From contig CAZRWH010000001.1 in NCBI GenBank assembly GCA_964603905.1, positions 3,146 to 65,155 of the forward strand: a DNA stretch of 62,010 bases, written 5' to 3'. Position numbers and translations under genes: made by a program. Positions 11,021 through 61,515 of the stretch are shown one piece after another; within the stretch, counting starts at the first letter, position 1; every line of letters begins with the position of its first letter. This DNA comes from an uncultured Candidatus Peribacteria bacterium. GTDB taxonomy: Bacteria > Patescibacteriota > Gracilibacteria > UBA1369 > UBA12470. The notes beneath the pieces were generated by a model that ran no database searches, was not told the origin of the DNA, and was given only the letters and a program-made list of their open reading frames with translations.

Positions 11021-11100
11021 TCTTTATGTAGTTAGTAGTTATAGTGGTAGTTGTAGTCATGGTGTTTTTTTGGCCAAAAAAGCGATTTTAACCTTAAAAC
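11021..11100 (-). repeat. family-A G-free leader (11028-11057) plus A/T palindrome (11065-11081)
   Basis: GTAGTTAGTAGTTATAGTGGTAGTTGTAGT lies next to the ATG. The palindrome is TTTTTTTGGCCAAAAAA. Confidence 0.6.
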
Positions 11101-11113
11101 ACACGCTTACCGG

Positions 11114-11142
11114 ATTCTAAAGATGGGGTAAAAAAAAGTCAA
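11114..11142 (-). promoter_or_regulatory. candidate sigma70-type promoter of the V-ATPase operon
   Basis: The minus strand reads TTGACT-N17-TAGAAT about 95 nt upstream of the first ATG. Confidence 0.4.
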
Positions 11143-11205
11143 TGGTAAAAACAGGCTAAATTCCTTGTCTGTAAGCCAGTTTTGTTGTTATTTGTGTGAT
11201 CAATC

Positions 11206-11367
11206 AAATTAGCGGTATATCGGCGATACCTGCTACCCAGCAGAGCTGGGCACTCTGTATAGCCGACCTTGCAGGCTTGTTTTTCGTAAATTTTGAAGCT
11301 TCATCGTACGGATAAGTACGTTTCGCTATAAAAATTTACTGCAAAACTGCGTATACCATCTAATTTT
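11206..11367. ncRNA. structured intergenic element, copy 1 (unknown family; strand unresolved)
   Basis: Aligns end to end with 59611-59771. Closing stem AAATTAG/CTAATTT. Helices 11220-29/11257-66, 11236-41/11245-50 and 11286-94/11331-39 pair in the same register as copy 2 with different sequences. Confidence 0.6.
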
Positions 11368-11392
11368 ATTGTCACACTTGATTGTTTTGTGC

Positions 11393-13474
11393 TCAGATCT
11401 GGTGTATCCGATTGTCCATCACATATGTCTTGTTTGCGGCCTTCGCGACTTTTTTCATTTGCAGCATGGCGCGTGGCATTGTGTAGGTTTTGAAGCTTTG
11501 GCCTCCAGTAATGAATGCTGCTGGTATCTTGTTTGGTGCTGAGAAGGGCGTTTGGTATATGAAGAGGGTTTTTATTTCTGGTTTGAGCATTTGCCACAGT
11601 CCTGGTGTGCCGACTAATACCGTACTTTCTGGTGATCTTTTGCTTAGGTTTTTGATTTTCCCCATTCCTCCCGATGCGTTTTGTGCCAGTACAGATATTC
11701 CTTCTTTTTGCAGAGGAAGTGCTATGTGTTGATGGAGGCTTAATGATGCTCTTTGTGAATTAATTAGTACGAACGTTGGCTTCTCTGCTTCAGGCAGTGT
11801 TTTTAACAGGTGATTACTGGCCTTCGAAGTGAACTCGTTGTCTTTTGGATGTGGCAGAAAGCTGACTAGCTCAATGTTTAGGTCTTTTTCTGATCTTATT
11901 ATTGTTTCTGTTGAGCTCGGCAGTTTGAGGAGTCTACTTAGGAATTGCCCCTGATTCTCTTCTTCTGCGTAAGTCACTGCGGTTGAGATCAATGTGTTTT
12001 GTGCTGTTTTTGACCATATTTTTTCGAACAAAAGGTCGTCTAGATTTTGAGGTATCACCTTTATAAGAGGGGAGGAGTCTTGCATTAGGCCGATTGATAT
12101 TTTGGCCAGATGTGTTTTTCCCTTTATTTTTGCTAAAAATTTCAAAAGCTGTGCTTCTTCAGATTCGGTGCTTAGTTCTGCTGCTATTTTGTCGATTAGA
12201 TCTGCGGTTTTTTTCCACTCAATTGTCGACATGTGATAGTCGTTCAGTTCTAGCTCGAATTGTTGGCCGAATTTTTCGTATAAGATTCCGATGTATCCGA
12301 ACAGTATTGTTAATCTGTCTTTTGTTTCGTCGGACAGGCTGCTTCGTAGGAATCGCTTTTGTGTGTATATGGCTGTGAAGCTTCGTTGAATGTTGTCGTA
12401 GAACTCGTCGATTTCATCTATTATTAGATGTTTTTGGTCTAAGAATCCTTCGTGGTTCTTTGCTAGTTTGGCGAGTGTTGAATGGCCTGTTATTACGGTT
12501 GTTTCTTCTAGTTTTTTGAGGATTTCCTGTGGGTATTTTTCGCAACATAGGTCCCACCACAGATTTTTGATCTCAAAAGGTATTGTTATGTCGGTTTTTG
12601 CTATTGGATGAGGTTTTCCGAGCGTGAATATTTTTAGGGCGAATGTTGTTTCTTCTGGTGTGAGGGAGTCTTTTTTTAGCATTTTCTCGAACAGCTCTTC
12701 GTCTAGGTATTGGTTTTTATCCAGGATGGTATGAATTGTTTCGTCGTTTGTTGCGACTATTGCTTGTTCATTTGCTAACGCTTGATGTTTGTATTCATCC
12801 AGTTCGATGAGTGCTGTTTTTGAATCGTGTTGTATCGGAAGAGGAGCGTGTGATACTTCTTCGTGTTTGGGGTCTCTTAATTCAACCTTCTTAAATGTTC
12901 GTGAAGCTTCTAACAATATTTGTCTCCATGGTGATTTTGATTTTTCTATTACTGGAAGGACTTCTTCAAGATTGTTTTTGGAAAAATATGTGTCTATTAA
13001 CCTGAAAAGTATGTCTATGTTGTCTTTGACATCTTTCAATGCGCGGTGTTGTCCTGTTTCTTCTACTCCAAGTTCCGATGCTATTATCTCGAGGCTGTAT
13101 GATTCTGCTTTTGGAACGGTAATGTGTGCGATGTCCATTGAGTCGAGACGAACATTTGTTGTAGGAATCCCTGCAGCTTCCAGGAAGTCCATATCGAAAT
13201 TAATGTTATGTCCCATTATTGGGTAGTCCGCAATGAACTCTTGTATTTCTGATTTTATGTTTGTCAGTCTTGGAGCGTCTACCAGCATCTCGTCGGTTAT
13301 TCCGGTCAGATGAGTGATTAGATTCGGCAGTTTTACCCCTGGAGATACGAAGGATTCAAAAGTTTTTTCTATTTCGCGTGTTTCTAAGTCCACCAAAGCT
13401 GCACCGACCTCGATAATTTTGTCGTTATCTTTGTTCAAACCTGTTGTTTCGATGTCCAGACATATGATTTTCAT
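11393..13474 (-). CDS. DnaQ-like 3'-5' exonuclease fused to a DinG-like helicase-type domain (ATPase motifs degenerate)
   Basis: 693 aa. DEDDh motifs DIETTG, GHNINFDMDF and HRALKDVKDN. The C-terminal part has a DEID box (HLIIDEIDEF) and VLVGTPGLWQ, but no N-terminal Walker A. Confidence 0.75.
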   Translation of the reverse strand: MKIICLDIETTGLNKDNDKIIEVGAALVDLETREIEKTFESFVSPGVKLPNLITHLTGITDEMLVDAPRLTNIKSEIQEFIADYPIMGHNINFDMDFLEAAGIPTTNVRLDSMDIAHITVPKAESYSLEIIASELGVEETGQHRALKDVKDNIDILFRLIDTYFSKNNLEEVLPVIEKSKSPWRQILLEASRTFKKVELRDPKHEEVSHAPLPIQHDSKTALIELDEYKHQALANEQAIVATNDETIHTILDKNQYLDEELFEKMLKKDSLTPEETTFALKIFTLGKPHPIAKTDITIPFEIKNLWWDLCCEKYPQEILKKLEETTVITGHSTLAKLAKNHEGFLDQKHLIIDEIDEFYDNIQRSFTAIYTQKRFLRSSLSDETKDRLTILFGYIGILYEKFGQQFELELNDYHMSTIEWKKTADLIDKIAAELSTESEEAQLLKFLAKIKGKTHLAKISIGLMQDSSPLIKVIPQNLDDLLFEKIWSKTAQNTLISTAVTYAEEENQGQFLSRLLKLPSSTETIIRSEKDLNIELVSFLPHPKDNEFTSKASNHLLKTLPEAEKPTFVLINSQRASLSLHQHIALPLQKEGISVLAQNASGGMGKIKNLSKRSPESTVLVGTPGLWQMLKPEIKTLFIYQTPFSAPNKIPAAFITGGQSFKTYTMPRAMLQMKKVAKAANKTYVMDNRIHQI

Positions 13475-13564
13475 GCTTGTAGTATAGGGGAGTGATGATT
13501 TCGGTTCCAGTTTTTTGGATCAAGATTTAACAAAAATTTAATATATGTGCGGTATTTTCTGGTT

Positions 13565-13960
13565 ATGAATTATATAAAAAAGTTTTTTGAATGGATTGTG
13601 TTGAAGCGCGATTTAGACAAGAAAAATCATAAACCTCCTTATGTTCCTGAAGGGGAAATATGGTGGGCGAGTATTGGAGAAAATGTGGGGGCTGAAATAA
13701 ACGGGAAGAGCCGTCTGTTTTCTAGACCAGTTATTGTTTTGAAGAAATTGTCTAAAGGGTTTTATTTTGTTGTTCCGACTACTACTCAGGTTCGAAATGG
13801 GAATTGGTATGTTGTTTTTTATGATAATAAATTTTGTGTTACTGCCTGTTTGCATCAAGCGAGGCCCGTTGATTATAGGCGTTTTTATTCAAAATTGGGC
13901 GAATTAGATAAAAGTGAGTTTGATAAACTCAAGAAGGGGTTTGAAAGTTTGTATTTATAA
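13565..13960 (+). CDS. MazF/PemK-family toxin-like protein (no adjacent antitoxin seen)
   Basis: EGEIWWASIGENVGAEINGK...RPVIVL...VVPTTTQ is the PemK fold signature. The ORF track starts at GTG 13547; the ATG at 13565 is more likely. Confidence 0.7.
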   Translation: MNYIKKFFEWIVLKRDLDKKNHKPPYVPEGEIWWASIGENVGAEINGKSRLFSRPVIVLKKLSKGFYFVVPTTTQVRNGNWYVVFYDNKFCVTACLHQARPVDYRRFYSKLGELDKSEFDKLKKGFESLYL

Positions 13961-25544: not shown

Positions 25545-27368
25545 ATGTTCAATCTTCTTAACAACCTGGCGGAGAGGCTAAACATCAGGGTTTCTGTTAT
25601 TGTTTTGGTTGTTCTTTTGTTTTCTGTTTCTACTTTGCAGACGGTTGTTACAAATGGCGGATGTGCAGGGGATTGTTCAACTACGACAAGCGTAACTTTG
25701 ACTACAGACTCTACGGCACCTAATCTTCAGTTGGTTAATCCTCCAAGTGGTGCTTTGTGTGCTTCTACTTTTGAAATGGAAATTCTTTGTGAACGTCTCG
25801 CAACTGTTTATGTTAATGGTGCCAACATTGGTACTGTTCCTGGAGATGATGGGCTTATCAATCATACTGTTAGTCTTAATTATGGGATTAATTCTTTTTT
25901 GATTTACGCAATAGACTACTGGGGGAATCAAACTTCTGATTTGAATGTGTCTATTACTCGAAGATCTGATTGTGGTGATGGTGGTCCTGGAGGGGGAGGT
26001 GATGAGGGTCCTTATGGTGGAGGTGTGCCTGATCCTGGAGATGACCCTGACGATGATGACGACGATGATCCAGAGGAAGATCCTGCGGAAGAAGATGATG
26101 ATGACGAGCCTTCTTCAGATCCTGAAGAAGAGGAGGAAGAGTTGCCAGGGGACGAGCCTTCTTTAGATCCTGAAAAAGAAGATGAAGTTGTTGAAGAGGT
26201 ACAAGAAGAAGAGCCTGAAGTCGAGGTAGCTGATGAAGACCTTTATTCTTATTGGATTCCGTATTATCCAGAGGGCGAGCCTTTTGTTTATCATGATGCA
26301 GCTTCAACATGTACTGCGGGTTGTTTGGAGGCTTTGCAAGATTTGAAGCCAAAAGCTTATTTACAAGATTCTGACGATGATGGTATCTCAGATGCTTATG
26401 AGATGTTCTTGAGTTGTGGGGAGGATCTGGATGATATATCGGTTTCTGATAATGAACTTGGTTCTTGTAGTTATATTACCTATACGGACTCGGATGTTTA
26501 TGTGCGCGGACAGGCTTTGGATGAAACAACTAAGGTTGAATTTTATTTAAGTGACGATAATGGTGGATACGAATATCTTTCATCTGTTGTCCCTAATGAA
26601 AATGGCGAATTTTTCTTTAAACACCCTGCGTGGGTTGATGGAGTCTATGAGCTTGTAGCTCGAGAATATGACGAACAAAAGTTGTTGCGTGAATATGGGC
26701 ATTCAATTCGTGTTGATATAGATGAAGATGTTTATTTGGATGTTGATAATCTCCAATACGGAAAAGGGGATAATACAATTCCTATGCCACTTTTAGTTCA
26801 GACAAATGTTTTAGGAGCGGCAACACAACTCGTTTATCAAAACAATGCTAAGACATATATGATTGGAGAGACAGTTCCTATGTCTGAAGTTGTTGTTGTA
26901 TGGGATGAAGAGTCTGCTTTGATTAGCAGTGGCATTTCTGATGCTGATACTGGGCGTTTCAAAGTTGAGACACCTTCTACCTTGCCGATTGGTTTTTATA
27001 ATTCATATGTTTACAGTATTGATTTGAGTAATTGGTTTATGAGTAGCTTGGCGACAGTTCAGTTTGAGATAACAATTGTGGATAAAATAATTGGATTCTT
27101 TGTTGCTACTCAGCTTCTTTGTATTATTCAATGGATTCTTTATATTATCTTGGCTGTGTTGTTGCTTATTGAAAAAAACACAGAGCACAGGAGGCGGAAG
27201 TATACTATTGGTATTTTGACGCTGTTCTTTGTGGCATGGATTTTTTGGCCTGGATTATGGATTTGTAAGTATAGTTTGTGGCCGGTTGTTTTGGTTTTGG
27301 TTTTGTTAATTCTGAAATTTATTTATAAAAAACTTTTTAAGAAAGACCTGGATGATAAAAACAATTAA
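25545..27368 (+). CDS. membrane-anchored surface protein: Ig-like domain, poly-D/E/P tract, C-terminal multi-TM anchor
   Basis: 607 aa. N-terminal hydrophobic segment. GDDPDDDDDDDPEEDPAEEDDDDE tract. Three hydrophobic segments in the last 90 aa. Confidence 0.7.
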   Translation: MFNLLNNLAERLNIRVSVIVLVVLLFSVSTLQTVVTNGGCAGDCSTTTSVTLTTDSTAPNLQLVNPPSGALCASTFEMEILCERLATVYVNGANIGTVPGDDGLINHTVSLNYGINSFLIYAIDYWGNQTSDLNVSITRRSDCGDGGPGGGGDEGPYGGGVPDPGDDPDDDDDDDPEEDPAEEDDDDEPSSDPEEEEEELPGDEPSLDPEKEDEVVEEVQEEEPEVEVADEDLYSYWIPYYPEGEPFVYHDAASTCTAGCLEALQDLKPKAYLQDSDDDGISDAYEMFLSCGEDLDDISVSDNELGSCSYITYTDSDVYVRGQALDETTKVEFYLSDDNGGYEYLSSVVPNENGEFFFKHPAWVDGVYELVAREYDEQKLLREYGHSIRVDIDEDVYLDVDNLQYGKGDNTIPMPLLVQTNVLGAATQLVYQNNAKTYMIGETVPMSEVVVVWDEESALISSGISDADTGRFKVETPSTLPIGFYNSYVYSIDLSNWFMSSLATVQFEITIVDKIIGFFVATQLLCIIQWILYIILAVLLLIEKNTEHRRRKYTIGILTLFFVAWIFWPGLWICKYSLWPVVLVLVLLILKFIYKKLFKKDLDDKNN

Positions 27369-30300
27369 GAAAAACTTGGCGGTCTTGATGGTGCTATCCC
27401 TTGTTGTGATAGGAAGCTGTATTGTGCTTGCGAAAGGTAATGATGGTCTTAATATCGGTTTCGATGATTTGGATGATTTGGCTGAAGTTCAAGTGATTGT
27501 TCATAGTGGTTCTCAAGATCGTGTTTATGTTCGTGATGCTGTGTCTGTGACAAACCCTATTGTTTTTGATGGTTTTGATTCATTGAACAGGTTGCCGTAT
27601 TTGATCGAAGCTAATCTGTACGATTTCGATCATAATATAATTGGTTCTCATGAGAAGGTTGTAATTCCACTGAGCGAGGTCGCTATTGTGGTTGGGATTT
27701 TGATGGTGATTTTGGGGTTTGTTGCTTGTAAAGTTTGTAAATTAAGAATGTACTATGCTTTTATTTCGGGTCTTTTGGTTGTTTTTGCTGGTGTATTCCT
27801 GGTTGTGCCTGGAATTGATATCGAAGGGACAAATTATTCGGCCAATATCTCTGATTTATTGTTTATAGATGTTGTTGATGTTGAAGGTTCTATTAAAGAC
27901 CTAGAATCAGAGGAAGTTGTTGCCGATGTTGAAGTAGAAGCTGTTATTGAGGAAGTTCAGGAGGAAGAAGTTATCGAAGAAGAAGTAGTTGAAGAGGTGG
28001 TAGAGGATGTCGAAGTTTTGGATGTTCCTATAGCAGAAATAATTGAGGAAGAGAAAGAAGAGGTGATTGAAGTTGTGGATCTTGAAGAGGAAGAAGAACT
28101 TGAAGAAGAGGTGGTAGATGAAGATGAAGTTGTTTTAGAGGAAGAAGAGGTCGTGATTGAAGAAATTGAAGACGAAAAGAAAGAAGAGGAAGAAGAGGTG
28201 TTTGAGGCAAAGCTGTATGATGCTGTTGATATTGATGTGGATTCAGAAAGTCAGGCTGTGGTTGTTGCATTTACTGACGAGCAGATTGATGAGCTTTATG
28301 ACTTTGAAAAATGGGTTCCTGTATTAGAGTCGTTGGAGGATATGACGTGTTTATCTGCTTTGGATGATGCTTATGATCGTCGTGTTGCTTCAATTTTTGC
28401 TGGTGTAGAGGAGGAAACGGAGGAAGCCGTGGAGGAAGAAAATGAGGAAGAAGAGATTGAGGTTGAGGAAGTTGAAGACGAGGAACAGGAGATCGAAGAA
28501 GAAGAGGTTGAAGAGGAAGAAGAGATAGATTCTGACGTGAATTTTGAATTATGGATTCAGTGGCTTGAAGATGAAGAGGCTTGGTATACTTGGGATGATG
28601 AAGATGAGAGTTGGTATAAGTGGATTTATAATGAAGAGGTTTGGAATAGATGGAATGTAGAGGAAGAGTCTTGGGATGTTTGGAATTCTGAGCTTTTGGA
28701 ATGGATTGTTATTGAAGAGGAAGACGAACTTGAAGAAGAGGTGGCCGAGGAAGAAGAGGTTGTGATTGAAGAAATTGAAGAGGAGGAAGAAGAGGACACT
28801 CCTCAATGGCATGAATGGACTGGTGGAGGATGGGATTCTTGGCAGGAGTTGATGACAGAGGAAAAAGAGGAATTGAAAGAAGAATTGGATGAAGACGAAC
28901 AAGATGAGGAAGACGAGATCGAGGACAAAAAAACATGGTATAGATGGGGCGATCATGAAAGTTGGTCGTCATGGATTGAGCAAGAGGTTGAAGACGAGGA
29001 AGAGGAGGAGTCAAAACAATGGCATGAATGGCTAGAAGCGAAAAATGATTTAGAAGGAGATGCTGAAGAAGACGAGGAAGAGGAGGAAGAAGAGGCTATT
29101 AGGTCTTGGTATAAATGGGATGGTTCTGAGGATGCATGGTTTAGATGGAACGTTGAAGATGAGAAATGGGAGGAGATTGAAATTGAAGATACAAATAGTA
29201 TTGCCTATAAGTTAAAGAATAAGTTCTCTGCATGGGGGCAGGCTTCATTGTCCCAGTTTGACTTTAAAGGTATTAAGGACAGTGTCTTGCATCTTTGGGA
29301 TGCGTCTCAGGGGTCGGTTAGTCTTTTTGATTTCGATCTTTTGGCTGCTAGAGTTCCTTTGGAGGCAGAATTGTTTAAGAAAAATAAGGACAAAAACAAG
29401 GCAATGAATTATTTGTCGCCATGGGCTTATTCTGGTGATGATGAGGATGAAGATGATAATGATGATGACGACGATCGTGATGACGAGGAAGAAGAGAGTG
29501 AGGAGGATGAGGTTGAAGAAGTTGAAGACGAAGAACAAGAGATCGAAGAAGAGAATGAGGCTGATGAGGAGGCTGTTGTTGAGACGGAAGAATCAGATGA
29601 ACTAAATGAAACTGAGGAAGAGGTTGTTGTTACTGAGGAGAAGGACGACGATAAGCAGGATGAGGATGAAGAAGAAAAAGAAGACGAATTGGTATTGCCG
29701 ATTGTATCGATTTTTGAGCCTGAGAGTTGGGTAGTTGGCAATCTTGAATCGTTTGAGGATCTTGACTCTTCGTTTGGTGTTCTTGATGACATGGATAAAT
29801 GTATTTCTATATTCTCTTATATTTCTGAAGGGGAATACGAGGAGTTTTTGGAGAGTTGGCTTGATTCTAAGTTGTCGGCTGCTAGAGCTATTGCTGAAGA
29901 GGAAACTTCCAAAGCACAAGAAAAGAAGATCTTGGTTAGAAGTGTGGATGATATTGTTGTAGAGAACGTTGTTATTACTCCTAATAACCCTAATTTAGAT
30001 TCGACTTTGGCGCTGGATTACATTGTGACAAACGTTGATAGTCACCCTGGTCTTTCGTTTGACTACACTTGGCAGCGAAAGAATAATTCTGGTCAATACT
30101 ATGAGATGGCATATGTTAAGAGCTCTGAAATTAAGCAGGATTTGATGAAGCCTAAATTCAAAAATATTCCTTATGGTTATGATGTGAAACGATACGAGCT
30201 TGGTTTCGATTTTGAATTTTATGGAGATGTTTATAATTCAATATATATATCCCCTGAAGGCTATGCTAGTTTCCATGACTTGTCTTCTGTTTTGGACTTT

Positions 30301-31251
30301 GAAGAAGGGCAACAATCGGTTATTGCTCCTTGGATGCCTGTTGATAGTTCTAAGATAGATTTTGATAAATCTTACTACCAAGTTAAATTGTCTGACGATG
30401 AGGATGGCAACCAGGCTTTGGTTTATTGGTCTATAGCATTGCTTGATGAGAAAAAAGAGATTGAGGTATATCTTTATTTGCTTGAAGACGAAAACTTGAT
30501 GATTTTTGAATATGACACTCTTCCTGACTCTCTTGATAGCAAGGACATTTACTCAGGTGTTCAGGATTATGGTAAAAAGCTTGCTGTAGGTGATGATGTC
30601 GAGATCTCCTATTTAGGGGTTTTCTCCAAAAAGAAATCTGTTGTTATTACTCCTTATTCTCGATTTGACGATATTGTTGGTGAAAGAGGGCCGACTCTTA
30701 ATCAGTCTCTTCAGGACGGTTACACTTATAGATTAAAAGTTGTTCCTTATCTTAATAATTTCTACGGAGAGGAAGGGTATTCGCGAGAGGTTACTGTTGT
30801 TGATTATGGTGGTGATGTTGATAATGAGTCTTGCAGTGGGTATACCAATGTTTGGTATTTCTTAGGGCCGGCTAGTTTTCATACTTATCCTGATGATGTT
30901 CCTGTTGTTTCCAAGGAGTCAGATCAGATGTTGCATATGGATTTAATTGAATACTTTGGCGAAGAAGAACTAAAAAATATGTCTAGTCTTTATCTTAGGA
31001 TAGATTCATTTGATTCTCGTGACGGTGGTTATTCTTTGGATTCGTCGGCTTTTTATTTGGAAGTTGCTGGTGTTGTCGAGTCTCCTGATGTTTACCATGG
31101 CGTTAAGTATTATGAGATTGATTTAACACCATATTCGGTTTATGGATTGCCTTTGCCGACTATGGAGGTGTTTATGACTTTGCCGGCGGATGCTCCTTCG
31201 GGGGTCTATGACTTCTATGCTTATAGTAATATTTATTATATTGAGGAATGA
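27352..31251 (+). CDS. giant hyper-acidic surface protein with WxxW decapeptide repeats and a non-acidic C-terminal region of about 430 aa
   Basis: 1299 aa. Signal/anchor plus two TM segments. E/V/D repeat tracts. W-x2-W-x6 periodicity. Its start overlaps the upstream gene by 17 nt and its stop overlaps the next ATG (ATGA). Confidence 0.75.
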   Translation: MIKTIKKNLAVLMVLSLVVIGSCIVLAKGNDGLNIGFDDLDDLAEVQVIVHSGSQDRVYVRDAVSVTNPIVFDGFDSLNRLPYLIEANLYDFDHNIIGSHEKVVIPLSEVAIVVGILMVILGFVACKVCKLRMYYAFISGLLVVFAGVFLVVPGIDIEGTNYSANISDLLFIDVVDVEGSIKDLESEEVVADVEVEAVIEEVQEEEVIEEEVVEEVVEDVEVLDVPIAEIIEEEKEEVIEVVDLEEEEELEEEVVDEDEVVLEEEEVVIEEIEDEKKEEEEEVFEAKLYDAVDIDVDSESQAVVVAFTDEQIDELYDFEKWVPVLESLEDMTCLSALDDAYDRRVASIFAGVEEETEEAVEEENEEEEIEVEEVEDEEQEIEEEEVEEEEEIDSDVNFELWIQWLEDEEAWYTWDDEDESWYKWIYNEEVWNRWNVEEESWDVWNSELLEWIVIEEEDELEEEVAEEEEVVIEEIEEEEEEDTPQWHEWTGGGWDSWQELMTEEKEELKEELDEDEQDEEDEIEDKKTWYRWGDHESWSSWIEQEVEDEEEEESKQWHEWLEAKNDLEGDAEEDEEEEEEEAIRSWYKWDGSEDAWFRWNVEDEKWEEIEIEDTNSIAYKLKNKFSAWGQASLSQFDFKGIKDSVLHLWDASQGSVSLFDFDLLAARVPLEAELFKKNKDKNKAMNYLSPWAYSGDDEDEDDNDDDDDRDDEEEESEEDEVEEVEDEEQEIEEENEADEEAVVETEESDELNETEEEVVVTEEKDDDKQDEDEEEKEDELVLPIVSIFEPESWVVGNLESFEDLDSSFGVLDDMDKCISIFSYISEGEYEEFLESWLDSKLSAARAIAEEETSKAQEKKILVRSVDDIVVENVVITPNNPNLDSTLALDYIVTNVDSHPGLSFDYTWQRKNNSGQYYEMAYVKSSEIKQDLMKPKFKNIPYGYDVKRYELGFDFEFYGDVYNSIYISPEGYASFHDLSSVLDFEEGQQSVIAPWMPVDSSKIDFDKSYYQVKLSDDEDGNQALVYWSIALLDEKKEIEVYLYLLEDENLMIFEYDTLPDSLDSKDIYSGVQDYGKKLAVGDDVEISYLGVFSKKKSVVITPYSRFDDIVGERGPTLNQSLQDGYTYRLKVVPYLNNFYGEEGYSREVTVVDYGGDVDNESCSGYTNVWYFLGPASFHTYPDDVPVVSKESDQMLHMDLIEYFGEEELKNMSSLYLRIDSFDSRDGGYSLDSSAFYLEVAGVVESPDVYHGVKYYEIDLTPYSVYGLPLPTMEVFMTLPADAPSGVYDFYAYSNIYYIEE

Positions 31252-58858: not shown

Positions 58859-59443
58859 TTATGAGTTTTTCCTTATGATTACTAGATTGTTTTTCCCGCC
58901 TGGGACAGGTCCTTTGATACCGATGAGGTTTTTCTCAGCGTTTACGTATGCGATCTTAGCGCTTCGTAGTGTAACTGCTGCGTTACCCATTCTTCCCGCC
59001 ATCTTCTTACCTTTGTGTACTCTTCCAGGTTTCGCACAGGCTCCGATAGATCCTGGTTCTCTTTTGTGGTGTGAACCGTGAGTCATTGGACCTCTGCTGA
59101 AGTTGTGTCTCTTGATTGTACCTTGAGTACCTTTACCTCTTGAAGTTCCAGTCACTTTTACAGTGTCATCTTCTTCAAAAAGATCTACCTTTACTGCATC
59201 CCCTGTATTGAGGGCGTCGTCCTCGCTTACGCGGAACTCCTTAAGGTAGTGATATTTTTTAGTCTTCGTAGGTCTTTTCATTTTTCCAAGACCTAGAACT
59301 ACCGCCGGATATCCATCTTTCTCAACCGTTTTGACTTGAACCACTTCGTTAGGTTCGCATTCAATGATTGTAAGAGGGATCACGCGACCATCGTCTTTAA
59401 TCAGACGTGTCATGCCGATTTTCTTGCCTAATATTCCAGGCAT
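58859..59443 (-). CDS. rplC: 50S ribosomal protein L3
   Basis: 194 aa. MPGILGKKIGMTR and ...GKGTQGTIKRHNF... motifs. Confidence 0.96.
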   Translation of the reverse strand: MPGILGKKIGMTRLIKDDGRVIPLTIIECEPNEVVQVKTVEKDGYPAVVLGLGKMKRPTKTKKYHYLKEFRVSEDDALNTGDAVKVDLFEEDDTVKVTGTSRGKGTQGTIKRHNFSRGPMTHGSHHKREPGSIGACAKPGRVHKGKKMAGRMGNAAVTLRSAKIAYVNAEKNLIGIKGPVPGGKNNLVIIRKNS

Positions 59444-59559
59444 AATAGTGATAGGTTAGTAGCTATTAATATTTATCCTTAGCTAGCAGGGGATAGGTCT
59501 TAATTCCTTCGAGAGGAGCCGCTCCCTGTTCTAACGTACAGATTTTAATGTGCGACGGC

Positions 59560-59588
59560 AGTCTATAGATTAGATTGCCCTTCGTCAA
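59560..59588 (-). promoter_or_regulatory. candidate internal promoter between rpsJ and rplC
   Basis: The minus strand reads TTGACG-N17-TAGACT about 115 nt upstream of the rplC ATG. Confidence 0.35.
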
Positions 59589-59610
59589 GCCAATTTTAAA
59601 GAAATTATAT

Positions 59611-59771
59611 AAATTAGCGAGCTGTTAACTTGGCCTGCTTTCTAGCAGAGCTAGAAACTCTGCCAAGTTAACCTGTTAGGCTTGTTCTTCGATAGCCCTT
59701 ATAACTCGCCGTACCATTAGTACGTCTCGTCATAAAGAGGCTATCTGTGAACTGCGTATCTCATCTAATTT
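59611..59771. ncRNA. structured intergenic element, copy 2 (unknown family; strand unresolved)
   Basis: Same architecture as 11206-11367. Closing stem AAATTAG/CTAATTT. Helices 59624-34/59662-72, 59639-46/59650-57 and 59691-97/59739-45. Shared CGTAC/GTACG hairpin. Confidence 0.6.
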
Positions 59772-59801
59772 TTACAATTTCTTGTTAAAATTGTTTGCAG
59801 T

Positions 59802-60125
59802 TTACTCTGAAGCGATCATCTTAATCTCGATGTCTACACCTGCAGGAAGTGCAAGGCTAGATAGTGATTCGATTGTTTTTGGTGTGCTTTCGCGGATGTC
59901 GATTAGTCTTTTGTGTGTTCTGATCTCGTATTGGTCTCGAGCGTCTTTGTTTACGAAAGTAGAGGTGTTAACTGTGAATTTCTCAATTCTTGTTGGAAGA
60001 GGGATTGGTCCAGCAATGATTGCACCTGTTCTTTCTGCTGTCTCGATGATTAGCTTTGCAGCTTCGTCAATGATCTTGTGATCGAATGACATGATTTTGA
60101 TTCTAATCTTTTGGTTTGTTGCCAT
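59802..60125 (-). CDS. rpsJ: 30S ribosomal protein S10
   Basis: 107 aa. ...[18 protein letters not shown]...GPIPLPT motif. Confidence 0.96.
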
Positions 60126-60275
60126 TTCTTTAGTTGTTAATGATTAGTTGTAAATTTCTTAAGCCACCCGGAGGGAACCCCGGGTGCATTTCTTTAGCAC
60201 CTAATTAATATAAATGGGATTTCCCTTGTGGGGCCAAGGCGTTAAAAGCAACGGCTTGGACTTTCTTTCTGGCTT

Positions 60276-60306
60276 GAAAACCTGGGCAAACGGGCGCTTG
60301 CCCAGG
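60276..60306 (-). terminator. rho-independent terminator after tuf
   Basis: The minus strand reads CCTGGGCAA-GCGCCCGT-TTGCCCAGG followed by TTTTC. Confidence 0.6.
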
Positions 60307-60324
60307 CAATTTAAATCAAAAAGA

Positions 60325-61515
60325 TTATTCGTGGATTTTTGTTACAACTCCAGCACCAACTGTTCGTCCACCTTCACGAATCGCGAAACGTGTTCCTTCG
60401 TCAAGAGCGATAGGAGCACCTAGTACGACGTCCATTTTGATGTTGTCTCCAGGCATAACCATCTCAACTCCAGCTGGAAGTTCGATAGAACCTGTTACAT
60501 CAGTTGTACGGATGTAGAATTGAGGTTTGTATCCTTTGAAGAAAGGAGTGTGTCGTCCACCTTCTTCCTTGCTTAGTACGTATACCTCACATTCGAATTT
60601 AGTATGTGGAGTGATTGATCCAGGTTTAGCAAGAACTTGTCCTCTTTCAATCTCTTCACGCTCGATACCTCTAAGTAGGATACCAACGTTGTCTCCAGCT
60701 TGACCTTGGTCAAGAAGTTTTCGGAACATCTCAACACCAGTAACAACAACTTTTCGAGTTTCTTTGATACCGACGATTTCGATTTCTTCGTTAACTTTGA
60801 TGATACCTTGGTCAACACGACCTGTAGCAACAGTTCCACGTCCTTTAATTGAGAATACATCCTCAACAGGCATTAGGAATGGTTTGTCTAGTGGTCGCTC
60901 TGGCATTGGAATGTACTCATCTAGAGCTTTTAGAAGTTCTACGATTGGCTCTGCGTCTGCTCCGTTTGGATCTTCCATAGCTTTAAGAGCTGAACCTTTG
61001 ATCACTGGAATATCGTCTCCAGGGAATTCGTATTTTGTTAGAAGTTCGCGTACCTCCATCTCTGAAAGTTCTGCGATTTCTGGATCTGCAATATCCATCT
61101 TGTTTAGGAAAACAACGATGTAAGGTACGTTTACCTGACGTGCAAGAAGGATGTGCTCTCGTGTTTGAGGCATTGGTCCATCAGCTGCAGATACTACAAG
61201 AATAGCACCGTCCATTTGAGCTGCACCTGTAATCATGTTTTTGACGTAGTCAGCATGTCCAGGACAGTCAACGTGAGCGTAGTGTCTTGTTTCTGTCTCG
61301 TACTCTTGGTGAGAAGTGGCAATTGTGATACCTCTTTCTCTTTCTTCTGGTGCGTTGTCGATTTGATCGAAAGCAACGACTTTGTTGTTACCGCCCATCT
61401 TTGTTGCGGCTACAGTTGTGATTGCAGCTGTCAATGTTGTTTTACCATGGTCAACGTGTCCAATAGTACCAACATTTACGTGTGGTTTGCTGCGATCAAA
61501 AGTTCCTTCTGCCAT
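60325..61515 (-). CDS. tuf: elongation factor Tu
   Basis: [27 protein letters not shown]..., 396 aa. The track ORF adds 19 codons from the stop-free leader. Confidence 0.97.

Follow-up and report, generated by a model that had tools for sequence, protein, structure and literature searches.

A dispersed, structured non-coding element of candidate phyla radiation bacteria, with two copies in a Peribacteria contig

Two window copies and the family they belong to

The DNA considered here is a stretch of 62,010 nucleotides (hereafter the window) from an uncultured Candidatus Peribacteria bacterium (assembly GCA_964603905.1, contig CAZRWH010000001.1, positions 3,146 to 65,155 of the forward strand). 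Two of its spacers hold a non-coding element, as copies A and B, and the genes flanking both are all on the minus strand. Copy A separates a 693-aa open reading frame (ORF) with an RNase_T exonuclease domain (11393-13474), whose helicase-type relatives go by the name DinG-like, from a 113-aa ORF and the V-ATPase genes that follow it (a Pfam scan placed V_ATPase_I and ATP-synt_C domains in the downstream ORFs). Copy B separates rpsJ (59802-60125), which is itself preceded by tuf, from rplC (58859-59443). The copies begin ~18 nt past the stop codon of the exonuclease-domain ORF and ~20 nt past that of rpsJ, respectively. They are members of a family that is real, uncatalogued, and held together by its structure. 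Our preferred reading, to which we assign a probability of roughly 0.55, is that the window pair are paralogous members of a proliferating element family of candidate phyla radiation (CPR) bacteria that is copied via a folded single strand.

A first-pass annotation, made from the letters of the window, had described two copies that align end to end at roughly 60% identity, with shared sequence blocks, three compensatory helices, and ends that pair as AAATTAG/CTAATTT. Computation agrees with this description on every count. A MAFFT alignment of 11206-11367 with 59611-59771 runs end to end and has 118 invariant columns of about 200, and a model-based alignment puts identity across the core at 62%; counting all of the closing helix, both copies are slightly longer than first aligned (Table 1). 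The blocks that were tested, CTGCT..AGCAGAGCT..ACTCTG and AACTGCGTATNNCATCTAATTT, have just two occurrences each in the 62-kb window, where 0.00-0.01 are expected. The folding of each copy on either strand stands at z -5.0 to -7.9 relative to dinucleotide shuffles. On the minus strand, 51 predicted pairs are common to the two copies, 18 of them kept through double-sided changes and none broken, and the three helices and the pairing ends all fall within this set. The annotation had left the strand undecided for lack of informative G.U pairs, but about six such pairs exist, on the minus strand only, and folding of the minus strand is favored over that of the plus strand by 5-13 kcal/mol. The functional strand is therefore the minus strand, that of the flanking genes. 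A filter-free covariance-model scan of the window found no third copy.

Family members are non-coding, measure about 165-180 nt, and have a high degree of structure. All have two arms set within a closing helix (P1) of 10-20 bp that varies in sequence between copies. Arm A forms a long, irregular hairpin whose internal loops are rich in GA and whose tip is CGUAC-loop-GUACG, and arm B consists of a helix (P2), a 4x4 loop AGAG/GCAG, an 8-bp helix (P3), and an AGC-UCU-GCU tip.

Table 1. Positions in the window of the two element copies, their parts, and signals lying close to them (MFE, minimum free energy)
Feature	Position	Strand	Details
Copy A, whole element including extended closing helix P1	11197..11374	(-)	Covariance-model match 11199-11374, 88 bits, E 2.6e-21; MFE -62.5 kcal/mol
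Copy A, P1 5' strand	11353..11374	(-)	Pairs with 11197-11218; 20 bp; includes AAAUUAG/CUAAUUU
Copy A, arm A, nested helices	11271..11350	(-)	11342-11350/11271-11279, 11331-11339/11286-11294, 11325-11327/11297-11299
Copy A, arm A tip		(-)	CGUAC (11316-11320)/GUACG (11305-11309)
Copy A, arm B	11219..11267	(-)	P2 11257-11267/11219-11229; P3 11245-11252/11234-11241
Copy A, arm B loops		(-)	Internal AGAG (11253-11256)/GCAG (11230-11233); UCU loop 11242-11244
Copy B, whole element including extended P1	59602..59780	(-)	P1 59760-59780 with 59602-59621; covariance-model match 59604-59779, 90.6 bits, E 5e-22; MFE -70.1 kcal/mol
Copy B, arm A	59680..59755	(-)	59749-59752/59684-59687, 59738-59745/59691-59698, 59729-59735/59699-59705; tip 59719-59726/59708-59715
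Copy B, arm B	59624..59672	(-)	P2 59662-59672/59624-59634; P3 59650-59657/59639-59646
Copy B, arm B loops		(-)	AGAG 59658-59661, GCAG 59635-59638; UCU 59647-59649
Promoter-like TTGACT-17-TAGAAT	11114..11142	(-)	10 of 12 matches; downstream of copy A, upstream of the 113-aa ORF and V-ATPase genes; outside the element
Promoter-like TTGACG-17-TAGACT	59560..59588	(-)	Downstream of copy B, upstream of the rplC leader; outside the element
Hairpin and U-run just 3' of copy A	11142..11200	(-)	Possible terminator of the upstream transcript, weak; by eye and from a weak STnc320 alignment (E 1.7)

Metagenome contigs were scanned for the arm-B motif CAGAGT-N(2-10)-AGCTCTGCT-N(2-10)-AGCAGG, which gave 49 loci (loci and contigs are given L numbers here). 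Seventeen of these have 4+4-nt gaps, and most of the 17 gap pairs match as complements with at most one mismatch, in some cases by way of G.U. A covariance model built from 14 sequences yielded 21 distinct full-length members, and a later one in L149 brings the total to 22; the model also found extra copies beyond the motif pattern (L131 has five within 5.1 kb, and L112 three within ~4 kb). The L125 and L112 contigs are from Candidatus Saccharibacteria, judging by the names of close AclA and YebC homologues, and the hosts of the family are many Candidatus Saccharibacteria together with the Peregrinibacteria/Peribacteria genome of the window.

The statistics of the 21-sequence alignment are those of a conserved fold. 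Pairing is found in 92.1% of 969 cells, versus 32%-43% when the partners are slid by one to three columns; double-sided changes occur at 42 of the 47 pairs (257 cells), and none of 500 shuffles matched the observed covariation values. On the sense strand there are 85 G.U pairs versus 33 A.C/C.A. Pairwise identity among copies is mostly 40%-70%, and most copies have stops in all three frames (8 of 60 copy-frames are stop-free). The suggestion of a novel structured RNA with covariation, made from the window pair, thus extends to a wider family recovered by searching relatives, and the element works in single-stranded form, as its sense strand.

The annotation had recognized no known RNA family, and the Rfam search that it proposed gave no match either. 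Rfam 15 at gathering scores matched nothing in the whole window, nothing relevant overlapped copies A and B at E<=10, and nothing overlapped the copies in six Saccharibacteria loci carrying 12 of them. By eye there is some likeness to hairpin-ribozyme loops (CAGAG.., AGAAAC/GUAU) and to the symmetric loop of signal recognition particle RNA, which finds no support in Rfam. Pattern scans of viral contigs returned chance matches or nothing, blastn against plasmids and phages returned no match, and full-text literature searches found no description of the element. Nor does it look like an intrinsic terminator: a terminator scan of the minus strand has no site in either window copy, where P1 is AT-rich and has no proper U-tract.

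Several variant forms were seen. Mini versions with the closing helix and arm B only, at L116:1025-1102 and L124:1262-1341 (= L132:664-743), keep the CAGAGU / AGCUCUGCU / AGCAGG motifs, and the one in L116 lies between convergent genes. A full copy at L094:250-496 carries an extra ~70 nt at the tip of arm A, which must therefore tolerate insertions. A truncated 5' half detected by nhmmer directly upstream of a full copy (L112:3254-3323) is the only decayed relic seen.

Gain, loss, and mode of spread

One change of state lies within a gene. AclA of L125 has 647 aa, while the homologues are otherwise 586-602 aa long among those listed, with 592 aa in L145 and L146. Outside the inter-domain linker, L125 is 99.8% identical in DNA to L145 and L146; in the linker, 211 nt that include the element stand in place of 46 nt, which makes the gene 165 nt (55 aa) longer on balance, with the frame kept and no stops. 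The ancestral linker LQKVEEKDET is recognizable in distant homologues, and the L125 state is hence the derived one. Three sites that are filled in L112 (at comEC, before yebC, and between ruvC and ruvA) are empty in L147 and L165, where YebC is 86%-87% identical, and also in L148 and L150. The pre-yebC site of L149 is filled too, and since its copy is nearer to several other members than to that of L112, it looks independently inserted. The copies L131:3435 and L114:605 are 94% identical in unrelated flanks, with outer P1 helices that differ by one compensated pair. Copies from the same genome tend to be mutual nearest relatives (62% for the window, 64%-68% for L112, 70% for L131), as expected for intragenomic proliferation, and copy number among related genomes runs from 0 to 5 per 5-20 kb. 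The family is multi-copy, patchy, and recently gained or lost.

Two ideas prompted by these sites were set aside. The outer part of P1 might have been an inverted copy of the target, as AGGATGA is shared with the empty site in the case of L125, but the yebC and ruvC-ruvA sites do not agree. A spliced intron is disfavored by the sole copy within an ORF, which is in frame and stop-free; a translated insertion should be both, while an intron need be neither.

Among the hallmarks of mobile elements, filled and empty sites between close relatives are present (aclA; comEC/yebC/ruvC-ruvA). Target-site duplications were sought in the flanks of 21 copies, where direct repeats reach 4-7 nt at the longest, the level of shuffled flanks. 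There are no conserved terminal inverted repeats; the ends pair within each copy, as P1, and their sequence varies with compensation. No insertion sequence (IS) with matching ends was seen among the flanking ORFs and loci examined. Given that it has neither target-site duplications nor conserved terminal repeats, the element is not a MITE (miniature inverted-repeat transposable element) of the classical cut-and-paste kind. The first-pass annotation had held that many near-identical copies with target-site duplications would point to a MITE; no such set was found, but a multi-copy family with recent gain and loss was.

It is conceivable that the element is a single-stranded DNA (ssDNA) element of the REP/RAYT type, or one derived from IS200/IS605 (PATE), with a Y1 (HUH) transposase that recognizes the fold on one strand. 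This would account for a conservation that depends on structure, for the asymmetry between strands, and for the missing terminal repeats and target duplications, and both the absence of terminal inverted repeats conserved between copies and of target duplications, and the G.T-type wobble asymmetry, are in line with it. The same ruvC-ruvA gap that holds an element copy in L112 holds a Y1_Tnp gene in L149, an IS200-like transposase gene (L149:11204-11895, 203 aa, minus strand) with the hairpin TTCCAAGGAGGCTCCTTGGAA on both sides. However, these hairpins are the gene's own and unrelated to the element, no other Y1_Tnp gene was seen, none of the copies has a Y1 gene nearby, and no conserved tetra- or pentanucleotide target is visible by eye beside the copies. 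Known REP and PATE units are short simple hairpins, which a 170-nt three-helix junction with GA-rich internal loops does not resemble. On balance we find such an origin improbable. Two other candidates were also rejected: integron attC sites, as the ends of the element are variable, no R''/R' boxes (RYYYAAC / GTTRRRY) are seen by eye, and the neighbors are housekeeping genes rather than cassettes; and retron msr-msd RNA, as the downstream genes are tRNAs, yebC, thrS, mnmA, and the like, with no reverse transcriptase domain in the flanking ORFs examined.

The insertion sites are mostly transcribed and non-coding, namely 5' untranslated regions (UTRs), gaps between cistrons, 3' UTRs, and positions adjacent to tRNAs; the L125 copy in the aclA reading frame is the only in-ORF case of ~25 copies. 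Copies stand directly 5' of tRNA-Met and tRNA-Asp and directly before the start codons of thrS, mnmA, yebC (twice), and a WbaP-like gene, another is upstream of comEC, and one L112 copy occupies exactly the gap from the ruvC stop to the ruvA start codon. Orphan copies L131:3435 and L100 have terminator-like hairpins right after them, L131 has tandem copies, and two copies are antisense to both neighbors (in L098, between RNase_T and yjbR, and in L114, after rplL). The neighboring genes are heterogeneous (tRNAs, thrS, mnmA, yebC, comEC, ruvA, wbaP-like, rplL, yjbR, and aclA). About half of the Saccharibacteria copies are preceded, at a distance of 14-55 nt, by an extended -10 box (TGnTAnAAT). 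At yebC in L149 this promoter has a homologue at the corresponding empty site of L147, and so goes with the locus rather than with the element. Purines dominate the 3' strand of P1 (GGUGNGNAGG), in which GAGGAGG or GAGGAA stands 5-6 nt ahead of the ATG of yebC in L149 and L112; in L098, whose copy is antisense, AGGAG arises from the complement of the 5' strand of P1, 11 nt ahead of the ATG of yjbR.

Such positions invite the view that the element is a host-serving cis-acting RNA module kept in UTRs, mobility being only its means of spread. It might protect a 5' or 3' end from exonucleases, offer an RNase III site in a 19-20-bp P1 that separates cistrons, or present or sequester a Shine-Dalgarno sequence. 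The structure is intact in almost all copies at 40%-60% sequence divergence, copies stand before yebC, thrS, mnmA, ruvA, and WbaP-like starts, before the two tRNAs, and 14-30 nt after extended -10 boxes, and the Shine-Dalgarno-like stretches in P1 before yebC and yjbR fit as well, as do the short distances of the window copies from the preceding stops (18-20 nt) and the hairpin and U-run that follows copy A. Against this, the same genes do without the element in relatives with YebC 86%-87% identical and in the relatives of the window, and position relative to genes is inconsistent, taking in 5' UTRs, 3' UTRs, orphans before terminators, antisense placements, and one ORF. Shine-Dalgarno overlap, moreover, is seen in only three to four of the ~8 copies that precede an ORF. 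A host-serving module is in our estimate unlikely.

The extended -10 boxes can also be read as the promoters of multi-copy genes for trans-acting small RNAs (sRNAs), whose invariant loops would bind a conserved protein or RNA, as a sponge or as part of a ribonucleoprotein, and whose helices would vary as those of tRNA genes do. The terminator-like hairpins after L131:3435 and L100, the clustering of copies with tRNA genes, and the existence of sub-families that span contigs (L102 with L131:4420/3673; L131:3435 with L114) would fit such genes. But the promoter at L149 yebC is that of the locus, no credible promoter goes with the window copies themselves (weak -10-like matches overlapping P1 are all that is there), several copies lie between the cistrons of operons, one lies in an ORF and two are antisense with no visible promoter, and a copy number that varies so widely among related genomes is hard to square with sRNA genes. 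We rate this reading as a long shot. Weight is nevertheless kept on both the UTR module and the sRNA genes, because almost all copies are intact despite 40%-60% divergence and relics are rare.

If the window pair are, as we prefer, paralogs copied via a folded single strand, copying would proceed through a folded single-stranded intermediate, either RNA or ssDNA, that a trans-acting factor might recognize through the conserved loops. After insertion, selection at each copy would keep the fold compact. By joining the ends, P1 may insulate the flanking message, so that an insertion would do little harm, and in some copies it may carry the Shine-Dalgarno of the next gene.

A number of observations weigh against this preferred reading. 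Copies within a genome are 40%-70% identical yet almost all intact, with one relic in ~25 copies. Intact folds and rare relics fit purifying selection at each locus, through a benefit to the host or a cost of misfolding, while selfish active transposition should give near-identical copies and more relics. The aclA event is a replacement and not a clean insertion, and hence could be an imported allele instead of a transposition. For many Saccharibacteria copies, an extended -10 box lies 14-30 nt upstream and a start codon or tRNA follows at once, an arrangement that 5'-leader function also predicts. No transposase, reverse transcriptase, or nuclease was found beside the copies in Pfam searches of the window ORFs and of the relatives' flanking ORFs. 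Finally, arm B is the most conserved module of the family, but its conservation is overstated, as 14 members were fetched with a pattern that fixes the arm-B motifs; true variability is for this reason visible only in the copies found by the model, which include CGGAG, AGUG, UCC, UUC, and UUG variants.

A stronger version would make the family a new class of mobile element that propagates via its own folded RNA or ssDNA instead of terminal repeats, small and intron- or retro-like, with the near-invariant arm-B core (AGAG/GCAG loop and AGC-UCU-GCU tip) as a catalytic or enzyme-docking site and with P1 rebuilt at each site. This we regard as rather doubtful.

The window copies beside two operons

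The annotation had placed both copies just after stop codons and upstream of promoter-like sequences that drive the V-ATPase and rplC operons. The placement is as described (Table 1). A role in regulating the downstream operons did not hold up, as the copies are upstream of the promoters and absent in relatives. If those promoters are real, both copies, being upstream of them, are outside the V-ATPase and rplC leaders. Rather than leaders or switches of the V-ATPase or rplC operon, the window copies are modules of the 3' UTR or of intergenic space that follow the exonuclease gene and rpsJ. The terminator scan does not list the hairpin and U-run that follows copy A.

The closest relatives of the L3 protein in GTDB genomes are from Candidatus Peregrinibacteria/Peribacteria, with a best match of 80% identity. 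No copy was found by nhmmer in 80 L3 loci from GTDB genomes, or by the covariance model in 17 Peregrinibacteria/Peribacteria/Gracilibacteria loci that included the rpsJ-rplC spacer. Peregrinibacteria relatives retain the promoter type and the leader before rplC without the element. For the exonuclease gene the nearest homologues are only 48%-51% identical, and in these relatives the gene order is exonuclease, a 787-aa SLH protein, a 114-aa ORF, and then V-ATPase, and the element is missing from this locus. Since relatives lack it at both places, it is conserved in neither operon.

These findings bear directly on the annotation's hint of a switch, spelled out here as a riboswitch-like RNA sensing a ligand or signal, which would control the operon downstream by toggling between the long arm-B hairpin and the alternatives CUGCU/AGCAG and CAGAG/CUCUG. 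Nearly every copy could form these alternatives (94%-96% of cells), one position (A/U to G/C) is double-changed in two copies, L131 has its tandem copies, and several Saccharibacteria copies do lie in 5' UTRs. However, with motifs that were partly fixed by the search pattern, CAGAG/CUCUG has two double changes versus two breaks and CUGCU/AGCAG has no covariation, and in stability the long hairpin far exceeds both. In the window, the promoter-like sites come after the copies, the associated genes have no shared function, and one copy lies in an ORF and two are antisense. A switch is thus a weak reading, being on the wrong side of the promoters, absent in relatives, and almost without covariation in its alternative pairings, and we hold it to be highly improbable.

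Some further features of these loci were noted in passing. The rpsJ-rplC spacer is a hot spot in the lineage (L012-L029), ranging from 124 nt to 1.8 kb, with differing, unrelated ORFs inserted from one genome to another. A leader of 100-150 nt before rplC, with a shared GGCTCC motif and a sigma-70-like promoter TTGAC[T/G]-17-TA[G/T]A.T, present in the window and in Peregrinibacteria relatives (window 59444-59590 (-); L012-L024), may be an undescribed ribosomal protein leader; it has no Rfam match, and no structure emerged when six leaders were aligned and consensus-folded. In the spacer at L013:9451-10001, a promoter-like site comes before ~400 nt of non-coding, GC-rich, structured-looking sequence with no Rfam match at E<=0.01. 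The 200-nt tuf-rpsJ spacer (window 60126-60325), which may be a leader of rpsJ, has a GC-rich hairpin at 60165-60186 and a weak sul1-like match that is below threshold (E 0.41). A 778-787-aa SLH-domain gene stands between the exonuclease gene and V-ATPase in L141 and L143; the corresponding part of the window (11021-13474) is without it and has copy A there instead. On the other side of the exonuclease gene is a PemK/MazF-like ORF (13547-13960, +). Elsewhere in the window, two adjacent large ORFs on the plus strand (25545-27368 and 27352-31251; 607 and 1299 aa) have no Pfam domain.

Comparison with known systems

CPR/Patescibacteria are ultra-small bacteria with strongly streamlined genomes of about 1 Mb, and several copies per 5 kb of an element of ~170 nt are notable in such a setting. 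So is a three-helix fold that is kept through 40%-60% divergence and yet is gained between alleles that are 99.8% identical. If the element is mainly selfish, a mobile element with no terminal repeats, no target duplications, and no adjacent enzyme gene would point to an undescribed mechanism of mobilization; if it is mainly host-serving, it would be a widespread UTR module in a little-studied part of the bacterial tree. In either case the covariance model should be useful for flagging spurious N-terminal extensions and "hypothetical" ORFs in CPR metagenome-assembled genomes, and the family is a caution against taking such spacers for operon-specific riboswitches.

Like the orphan RNA motifs of Rfam, the CPR family is defined by comparative structure only, with strong covariation. 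It differs from them in being absent from Rfam 15, and from most of them in its insertion polymorphism and its very heterogeneous gene contexts. MITEs such as Correia/NEMIS, Nezha, Chunjie, and ERIC-like elements are short, non-coding, and multi-copy, with stable RNA folds and filled and empty sites, often in transcribed spacers (PMC3184786). The CPR element is likewise short, non-coding, multi-copy, and stably folding, with filled and empty sites. In contrast to the classical MITE it has no conserved terminal inverted repeats, no target-site duplication, no related full-length IS, and no sets of near-identical copies, and what is conserved is the structure and the loops rather than the ends.

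Rickettsia palindromic elements (RPEs) are about 105-146 bp long. According to what Ogata et al. reportedly found in 2000, they are small structured repeats that occur in intergenic DNA and also in frame within genes, where they add a peptide without destroying the protein. The CPR element, too, is in frame in one gene, adding 55 residues to the inter-domain linker of AclA. Such in-ORF copies are only one of ~25, however, and most copies have stops in all frames; the CPR element is a three-helix junction with invariant loop motifs and not a simple palindrome, its host lineage is another one, and there is no sequence similarity. RPEs are listed among small repeats alongside bcr1 of the Bacillus cereus group (PMC3184786). 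The latter is a dispersed, transcribed element of ~155 bp whose distribution is not conserved between related strains; compensatory base-pair changes keep its two-arm, cruciform-like RNA structure, 5-bp direct repeats flank it, and its copies are said to lose structural stability repeatedly (PMC3184786). With bcr1 the CPR element shares a dispersed multi-copy habit, a similar length, a structure kept by compensation, and a patchy distribution. Unlike bcr1 it has no flanking 5-bp direct repeats, nearly every copy is intact, a long variable closing helix is combined with conserved internal loops, and there is no relationship in sequence or in Rfam. Of the known systems, bcr1 and the RPEs are the nearest analogues of the CPR element.

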